Part shown: positions 31,790 through 33,521 of the stretch, piece by piece
How positions within the stretch are numbered: position 1 is the stretch's first letter
Layout: each line of letters begins with the position of its first letter
Source: Alphaproteobacteria bacterium
GTDB taxonomy: Bacteria; Pseudomonadota; Alphaproteobacteria; UBA2966
Direction: 5' to 3'
Assembly (NCBI GenBank): GCA_964291395.2
Contig: OZ219858.1
Location: 192,001-256,000, forward strand
DNA: 64,000 nt
Notes under the pieces: model-generated
What the model was told of the DNA's origin: nothing
Databases searched by the model: none
What the model saw: the letters and a program-made list of their open reading frames with translations, nothing else
Made by a program: the position numbers and the translations under genes

Positions 31790-32476
31790 GTGCGCACGCT
31801 CTCGCATGCCCGGGCAAAAAGGTTCTACGACCGATTCGGAACCAGACAGGACCGCAGCACGCTCTACGAGGAACGCCCCCTCGAGCTACTGATCGAGAAC
31901 GCCGAACTAGGCGAGGCGACCGCTGTATTCGAGTTTGGATGCGGTACCGGCCGCCTGGCCGAACGCCTGTTGCGCGATCATTTGTCGGAGCAGACGACCT
32001 ATACGGCCGTGGATGTCAGCGACACCATGTTCGGGTTGGCACGCGAGCGATTGGCGCAGTGGCCATCGCGGACCGAGGTTTACCTAACCACCGGAGAAAT
32101 GGATCTCGAAGTCGATGATTCCAGCTGCGACAGGTTCATTTGTACATACGTATGCGATCTATTGAGCACCAACGACATCCACAAACTACTTGAAGAGGCG
32201 CACCGTATCTTGCGACCGGGCGGATTGTTGTGCCTTGCGTCGTTGACCGCGGCCCATGGATTCGGAGCCAAGCTGGCGACAGGGCTGTGGCGACTCACCT
32301 ACCTGATCAGCCCCGTCCTTGTGGGCGGTTGCCGGCCGATCAGGCTGTGGCGATATATCTACGCGGATTACTGGGAAGCCCGATTTCGCCGCGTCGTGTG
32401 TCCCGGCGGCTTGTGCAGCGAAATTCTCGTTGCGAGCTGCATCAAGGACGGCGAGACGTTGTACGAAGATCGCTGA
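31790..32476 (+). CDS. Class I SAM-dependent methyltransferase
   Basis: FEFGCGTG, VDVS, RILRPGG, GGCRPI. Confidence 0.85.
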   Translation: MRTLSHARAKRFYDRFGTRQDRSTLYEERPLELLIENAELGEATAVFEFGCGTGRLAERLLRDHLSEQTTYTAVDVSDTMFGLARERLAQWPSRTEVYLTTGEMDLEVDDSSCDRFICTYVCDLLSTNDIHKLLEEAHRILRPGGLLCLASLTAAHGFGAKLATGLWRLTYLISPVLVGGCRPIRLWRYIYADYWEARFRRVVCPGGLCSEILVASCIKDGETLYEDR

Positions 32477-32655
32477 TCAGCTTTCGTGAGGGAGCACCGC
32501 GACAGGTTCTCAGGTCCCGGCCACCACGTTATGGTTGCCCATCTCGTATTCGTGCCCAAGCCGCCAACCGCAAGCCGGAAGCACCAAGAACCATTGGCTC
32601 CAGCGCGCCTGATTCTGTAGCGTTGTGGGCCTGATCCCAGGAGATACGACCGAGT

Positions 32656-32877
32656 ATGAACATCGAGATCGCTTACTGCTCAGTTTGAAACTACGAGCCT
32701 AGGGCCCTCCGTGCGAGGGAACAGATCTTGGCCAGGGTGCCAGAAGCCAACGTCCGGCTCGTAAAAGGGAACACGGGTGACTTCGAAGTCACCGTGGGCG
32801 GCGTGTTGAAGTTCTCCAAGCAGGAACTCAGGCGTTTTCCCACGGACGAGGAAACCGTCGGTCTGGTCTCGGGCTGA
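32656..32877 (+). CDS. Rdx family (SelW/SelT/SelH) selenoprotein with in-frame UGA at 32686-32688
   Basis: Manual translation MNIEIAYCSVUNYEPRALRAREQILARVPEANVRLVKGNTGDFEVTVGGVLKFSKQELRRFPTDEETVGLVSG; CxxU, GxFEV, FSK and RFP family motifs; SD AGGAG upstream. Confidence 0.88.
32705..32719 (+). promoter_or_regulatory. Candidate bacterial SECIS hairpin
   Basis: CCCTC-CGTGC-GAGGG; loop starts about 21 nt after UGA, with G at loop position 2. Confidence 0.6.
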
Positions 32878-32902
32878 GGCTGAATCGGCGTTGGCGAGGT
32901 GT

Positions 32903-32976
32903 TGGAGCGGGCGAGGGGAATCGAACCCCCGTCGTAAGCTTGGGAAGCTTCTGCTCTGCCATTGAGCTACGCCCGC
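32903..32976 (-). tRNA. tRNA-Gly(CCC)
   Basis: Reverse complement GCGGGCGTAGCTCAATGGCAGAGCAGAAGCTTCCCAAGCTTACGACGGGGGTTCGATTCCCCTCGCCCGCTCCA; cloverleaf, TTCGA, encoded CCA. Confidence 0.96.
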
Positions 32977-33128: not shown

Positions 33129-33521
33129 ATGTACAGCCAGAAGACGCGGTCGATCGAGGTCACGGTCAAGCCCATGTACCTCGACGACCAGTCCTCGCCG
33201 TCGGACGATCATTACGTGTGGGCCTATTGGGTCCGCATCGAGAACCAGGGATCGGAGACCGTGCAGCTCCGGTCACGGTATTGGCATATCACGGACGCGA
33301 CGGGCCGCATCCAGGAAGTCCGCGGTGCGGGGGTGATTGGCGAGCAACCAGTTCTGCAACCAGGTCAGTCCTTTGAGTACACGAGTGGAACGCCGCTGCC
33401 CACACCGTCCGGCATCATGCTGGGCCGCTACGAGATGGAATCGGAGCAGGGAGAGAGATTCGAAATCGACATTCCTGCGTTCTCACTGGACAGCCCGTAT
33501 CAGGAGAAGTCGATCAACTAG
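33129..33521 (+). CDS. apaG: ApaG protein
   Basis: [41 protein letters not shown]. Confidence 0.95.

Follow-up and report, generated by a model that had tools for sequence, protein, structure and literature searches.

Evidence for a stand-alone SelW-like (Rdx) selenoprotein gene with an in-frame UGA and a downstream SECIS hairpin in an alphaproteobacterial genome

SelW-like proteins made up the most numerous family of selenoproteins in both the Sargasso Sea survey (48 genes; PMC1088965) and the GOS survey (427 genes; PMC2398784), and they are tabled as PF10262 proteins with a CxxU motif, predicted with high confidence (PMC9312934, PMC13188914). The function of the family has been called unclear; a redox role was suggested from the CXXU motif, and glutathione binding was mentioned (PMC1088965). 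For SelW of Campylobacter jejuni (CJnc60), a previously unannotated gene, Ribo-seq and proteomics showed translation past the selenocysteine (Sec) codon (PMC11955535). FdhA was the only selenoprotein of the Sec-decoding Alphaproteobacteria of 2006 (PMC1794560), and formate dehydrogenase (FDH) has been called Sec's primary role in this class (PMC8124441); FDH is scarce in marine selenoproteomes (PMC1088965, PMC13188914). Ten selenoproteins are tabled for Reyranella massiliensis 521, and most alphaproteobacterial rows of the same table give 0-2 (PMC5029168). BSepDB screened thousands of alphaproteobacterial genomes (PMC13326102), and genes such as the one described here may already be in the tables on its website. 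We found no paper specifically on SelW-like selenoproteins in Alphaproteobacteria or in sponge symbionts, in a search that covered little of the subscription literature.

The gene described here shares with the prokaryotic SelW-like selenoproteins the domain, the CxxU motif, the size, the in-frame UGA and a downstream SECIS with a G in the loop. In contrast to the survey genes, it can be assigned to a near-complete genome of an alphaproteobacterium, and it differs from the Campylobacter gene, which comes from another class and has experimental support. Ten Prx/SelW reads were reported from GOS (PMC2398784), whereas this gene has no Prx neighbour. We regard it as very probably a stand-alone, functional selenoprotein gene of the SelW-like (Rdx) family.

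The gene lies on the forward strand at 32656-32877 of the window, the whole 64,000-nt stretch of DNA that was analyzed. The first-pass annotation had described a reading frame interrupted by one TGA, and each of its elements is present: an ATG at 32656, ten codons encoding MNIEIAYCSV, TGA at 32686-32688, 62 further open codons, and a terminal TGA at 32875-32877. A Shine-Dalgarno-like AGGAG (32639-32643, +) lies 12 nt 5' of the ATG, a longish spacing, and the GGAG is spaced alike in two same-genus Rdx homologues. When the internal TGA is read as Sec, the product has 73 residues and contains C8-S-V-U11. Rdx proteins are characterized by GxFE(I/V) and C-terminal (F)P motifs, and the motifs reported earlier were located at residues 8-11 (CxxU), 41-45 (GDFEV) and 60-62 (RFP). 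A scan for promoters and terminators found none for this gene. The ORF listing (at least 50 aa) contains no plus-strand ORF at the locus, as had been remarked, and the suspicion that standard gene callers would truncate the gene proved correct. The four closest database proteins (79-96% identity) are fragments of 48-49 aa that start at codon 25 and lack CxxU; in the window, this form corresponds to a 49-aa product from an internal TTG (32728-32877, +; near-identical entries P0002-P0005). Public protein sets thus hold only the motif-less truncated product. The single gene closes this annotation gap and brings no new biology by itself, because SelW-like CxxU proteins have been catalogued since 2005.

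The read-through translation scored 61.1 bits against Pfam Rdx (PF10262; cut-off 22.6), covering positions 1-72 of the 74 in the profile, and 51 bits against TIGR02174 (CXXU_selWTH, the SelT/SelW/SelH family; cut-off 34.2), which bears out the family assignment of the first-pass annotation. The part after the UGA alone reached 40.0 and 34.8 bits, respectively; because the full read-through scored higher, the N-terminal codons belong to the Rdx domain. The best-scoring NCBIfam model was NF041051 (SelTWH_Campy) at 82.1 bits, which is under its equivalog cut-off of 88. G41, F43, E44, R60 and P62 are invariant in an eight-row alignment. An AlphaFold model built from this alignment (pLDDT 95) places the motif between a strand (residues 2-7) and a helix (14-27), and the predicted structure is thioredoxin-like, as in Rdx proteins. 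Foldseek matched the model to the Cys-type bacterial Rdx structures Atu0228 of Agrobacterium (2fa8; TM 0.91, rmsd 1.1 Å), 2p0g, 2obk, 2oka, 2ojl and 3dex, and to mouse SelW (2npb; TM 0.79) and MIEN1 (2ljk), all of the same fold (TM 0.79-0.91, 21-29% identity); a sequence search of the PDB returned the same eight structures. The bacterial structures are longer (103-108 aa) than the 73-aa protein, and the alignment with 2fa8 shows CxxC at the motif.

A hairpin downstream of the UGA had been missed by the first-pass annotation; its selenoprotein reading is supported, and the SECIS is added here. The SECIS core (32705-32719, +) overlaps codons 17-22 and consists of a 5-bp stem and a 5-nt CGUGC loop (32710-32714) with G at the second loop position, the loop starting 21 nt past the UGA. 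With its flanks (32701-32722), the hairpin has an MFE of -8.6 kcal/mol. The bacterial consensus in PMC13188914 comprises a loop of 3-9 nt, a stem of 4-16 bp, a G among the first two loop nucleotides, a distance of 16-37 nt from the UGA and an MFE of at most -7.5, and the hairpin lies within every one of these limits. Across 28 TGA-type loci, the stem paired in 95.7% of 140 cells, and none of 500 shuffles paired as well; six cells, in two of the pairs, were altered on both sides. Slid registers paired at 36-61%; since the hairpin had been derived from the present sequence, register 0 is favoured in paired fraction. The full set of five pairs forms in 23 of the 28 TGA loci versus one of 14 Cys loci.

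Codon choice within the stem is likewise constrained. Arg19 is CGT in 28/28 loci against a genome background of 15.5%, Leu18 is CTC in 27/27 (background 38%), and Arg21 is AGG in 19/22 (background 4%), while six codons are used for Arg16, which lies outside the stem. Some compensations alter the residue itself (L060; L058, L061, L065). The stem recurs unchanged in a second CxxU gene of this genome, there capped by a CGUGAA loop. Folded in isolation, the hairpin region did not exceed its shuffles in stability (z about +1 for three folding windows out of four, -0.7 for the remaining one), and the RNAalifold consensus energy was only -0.9 kcal/mol; the comparison across loci was the informative test. 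With their compensatory changes, the 28 loci offer naturally occurring versions of a compact SECIS from Alphaproteobacteria that are suited to read-through reporters.

The position corresponding to residue 11 was expected to hold Cys or Sec in homologues, and this is what was found. It is TGA in all 28 loci of the close clade, which represent this genome and 27 others from many families, and the frames in the 27 others are intact at 70-91 codons; in all 14 Cys-type homologues read, the column holds TGC. The Cys-type set consists of six of the 15 no-stop loci from the class and eight loci from named genomes, the latter all being Cys-type and outside the clade because the search pattern required Cys. 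The 28 loci are related, so these counts are not independent. Upstream of the UGA, C8 and I5 are invariant in 28/28 TGA loci and Y7 is found in 26/28; the aligned start codon is ATG in 22/28.

Among 40 relatives, seven carry the TGA form and one carries the Cys form. In 401 genomes of the class (this one included), 39 matches were obtained, 24 with one TGA and 15 without a stop. The occurrence of Sec genes follows this division: selA over the cut-off and tRNA-Sec were each found in 21 of 23 TGA-type genomes and in none of the 15 no-stop genomes. The selA exceptions among the UGA carriers are G033 (77% complete, no match) and G345 (84% complete, a partial match at a contig end). We placed no weight on a p-value for this co-occurrence, because the genomes are kin and not independent. 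The Cys-type homologues of the class form a separate branch of the tree, from which no donor or order of events was drawn, because it is based on 76 columns, is poorly resolved and has unsettled bootstrap values. Four Cys-type proteins (P0008, P0006, P0007, P0009) are nested in the UGA clade of this weak tree and are possibly Sec-to-Cys reversions; the SECIS-shaped peptide ALRAR is kept in P0008 and lost in P0006, P0007 and P0009.

The codon was also compared with Logan contigs, which are assembled contigs and not raw reads. In two public runs that belong to different studies (X1, which may be the source sample, and X3), contigs spanning the codon had no other letter at 32686-32688, and those of X3 differ from the window at eight other places with the TGA unchanged. 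A contig from an RNA library spans only 32717-32930 at a depth of 2.4 and stops short of the UGA; it was not taken as expression, and the remaining small-share matches in RNA runs are genes of relatives. In run X16, a sponge RNA library, two contigs with loose ends at 32685-32686 carry Rdx genes of other organisms with the same UGA-SECIS stretch.

The Sec pathway predicted from the gene is encoded by the genome, with selA, selB, selC and selD all present. A minus-strand cluster at C1:1022640-1026097 contains selA (574 bits), selB (426 bits) and a tRNA-Sec with a TCA anticodon (70.7 bits), and selD (310 bits) lies elsewhere on C1. The tRNA-Sec begins shortly beyond the stop codon of selB (1022759 vs 1022734), in contrast to some Alphaproteobacteria, in which it lies within selB (PMC8124441). 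SelD (C1:2559119-2561719, +) has an N-terminal NADH-dehydrogenase-like fusion and Cys (CGGCGAK) instead of Sec; Ndh-SelD fusions with CxxC have been described (PMC2398784). selA occurs in each of the 12 other genomes of the family. In G005 (C1:2288909-2290265) and G012 (C282), the selA match is split into two adjacent pieces, probably owing to assembly frameshift errors.

The window is on contig C3 and the Sec genes are on C1; the completeness of the assembly is rated at 98% and its contamination at 9%. The two contigs have matching tetranucleotide composition (r 0.9995) and GC content (64.0/63.8%), and the tRNAs of one largely complement those of the other. Some 75 kb of C2 repeats the beginning of C1 (C1:1-87000) at 96-98% identity. 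Since the compositions match, the tRNAs are largely complementary and C2 copies part of C1, the assembly is better explained by strain duplication than by a foreign contig, and the duplicated part of C2 is likely a second strain and a source of the contamination figure.

Three readings in which the UGA does not encode Sec were weighed against these data. If a TGY Cys codon had turned into TGA, by mutation or by sequencing error, the gene would be dead or miscalled; strain-like duplications in the assembly would suit such a reading, as would the dispensability of the gene, which was not found in some same-genus genomes (see below). Yet the same TGA recurs in intact frames of 27 other genomes, the contigs of two runs agree on it, it tracks selA and selC, and the codons downstream are constrained, which leaves a pseudogene or an error extremely improbable. 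An alternative genetic code with UGA read as Trp or another residue deserves equally little credence. It is prompted by the Trp found at the Sec position in 53 of the best 150 library matches (P0008-P0156, P0002), among which 51 have Cys, 40 have no recognizable motif and six have other residues. The Trp entries are probably selenoprotein TGA codons that gene callers read under table 4. In this genome, TGA closes 440 of 794 filtered long ORFs, so it is an ordinary stop elsewhere, and no internal TGA occurs in the selA, selB, selD and FDH matches; the anticodon of the sole tRNA-Trp is CCA, and the tRNA with TCA scores as tRNA-Sec. The true product might instead be the 49-aa protein from the internal TTG, with the upstream part a remnant or a leader. 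This form is the one present in the databases, but it would be without the motif, the first strand and the larger part of the first helix, and the invariance of I5 and C8, the near-invariance of Y7 and the aligned ATG starts are at odds with a relic upstream; we consider it very improbable, if slightly less so than the other two.

With the UGA read as Sec, SelB bound to the hairpin 21 nt downstream would, very probably, deliver Sec-tRNA(UCA) to codon 11; this step is taken from the established SelA/B/C/D pathway. The predicted product would be a 73-aa cytoplasmic, thioredoxin-like protein with C8-x-x-U11 in the loop before helix 1. By analogy, it probably acts, in outline, as a small thiol/selenol oxidoreductase: the selenolate of Sec11 would attack a peroxide or, on a partner protein, an oxidized cysteine or a disulfide, and Cys8 would then resolve the resulting adduct into a selenenyl-sulfide. 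Re-reduction of the latter might fall to a cellular thiol, for example glutathione or thioredoxin. A different role for a genuine selenoprotein, in which C-x-x-U holds a metal or forms a binding module switched by redox state and no turnover takes place, is unlikely, though it carries appreciable weight; it is conditional on the gene being real and shares its probability with the functional part of the preferred explanation. Binding would agree with the filing of the family under 'predicted' (PMC13188914), with its function having been called unclear (PMC1088965), and with the description of mammalian SELENOW as binding 14-3-3 through its U (PMC8508763). However, a motif that opens helix 1 of a thioredoxin-like fold is the classic redox geometry, and no metal-related neighbour recurs.

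The Rdx gene is one of at least 11 candidate selenoprotein genes in the genome. The others have an in-frame TGA at a Cys-like catalytic position and comprise six PrdB-like genes (C1:550879+, C1:680227-, C1:464014-, C1:462777-, C1:804125-, C1:2343715+), two AhpD-like genes (C1:1088744+, C3:978699+), one Prx-like gene (C3:37286+) and one Ldi-like gene (L086:122-1675-), the sign giving the strand. The PrdB-like genes C1:804125- and C1:2343715+, which were checked only locally, may be strain duplicates. A motif scan gave 1181 TGA matches, 45 of them under a strict motif; ten candidates picked from it by eye and one further candidate were tested. Three of these 11 were discarded, namely an ArsR gene that has a start of its own and a pair of candidates without a family. 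The count of selenoprotein genes is therefore a lower bound. In a de novo scan by hexamers for UGA read-through genes, shadow frames on the antisense strand drowned the signal, and the Rdx gene itself was missed.

The FDH-family matches of the genome contain no internal stop, hence no Sec-FDH was found in it. In the 27 other Sec-Rdx carriers, surveyed with one model at E <= 1e-30, three had a TGA-containing FDH over the cut-off, 22 had stop-free matches only and two had none. GRDB-family profile matches were obtained in 22 of the 31 genomes searched. From these data, we incline slightly to the view that scattered Alphaproteobacteria of many families (23 of 400 sampled besides this one) keep Sec for an 'ocean-type' set rather than for FDH, the set being defined as SelW-like, PrdB-like, AhpD-like and Prx-like proteins. 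If true, this departs from the view that the selenoprotein of Alphaproteobacteria is mainly or solely FDH, it names a host class for part of the abundant and mostly host-less marine SelW-like genes, and these hosts would share one tightly conserved SECIS that constrains the peptide ALRAR. The Rdx gene could then serve as a marker of Sec use without Sec-FDH spread across uncultured Alphaproteobacteria. Reyranella massiliensis 521 resembles this genome in having about ten selenoprotein genes and not FDH alone, as far as can be told from a table that gives counts only.

Judging from its own markers, the host is an uncultured alphaproteobacterium. Records of Tistrella and Skermanella share about 89% identity with its 16S region, and the best 15 ArgF matches shown are all alphaproteobacterial; GcrA (PF07750) and ChpT (PF10090) were not found in a search of the genome. 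Of the 14 runs with half or more of the words, ten are labelled sponge metagenome and four have coded names.

The neighbours of the Rdx gene point to no partner or function. A class I SAM methyltransferase gene lies upstream (31790-32476, +), a tRNA-Gly(CCC) gene lies tail to tail with it at a distance of 25 nt (32903-32976, -), and apaG follows (33129-33521, +); the methyltransferase gene and apaG are neighbours only within the genus. A scan around the 28 loci covered 93 of 111 listed flanking ORFs (about 1.5 kb per side, longest frame per place), most of the other 18 being frames antisense to the Rdx gene; the methyltransferase and apaG of this genome were scanned separately. Recurrence of a family was limited to pairs within a genus or family and no metal-related neighbour recurred, so no operon-based function was assigned, and the locus, without informative neighbours, does not help in finding what this selenoprotein family, the commonest in the sea, acts on. 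Three of five same-genus genomes (98-100% complete) keep selA, but the gene was not found in them. In these three, the site beside the tRNA-Gly is rearranged, and no Rdx remnant was detected in seven loci around the same site. The gene is therefore accessory, stand-alone and dispensable in the genus, being absent from three of five congeners and having no recurring neighbours. The stretch between the methyltransferase and tRNA-Gly genes (window 32477-32976; L097, L098, L107) is variable in the genus: it measures about 0.4 kb with the Rdx gene here and about 5.8 kb in G001, is rearranged in G002, and in G004 spans 1.7 kb with a membrane protein in which pentapeptide-like repeats were recognized by eye.
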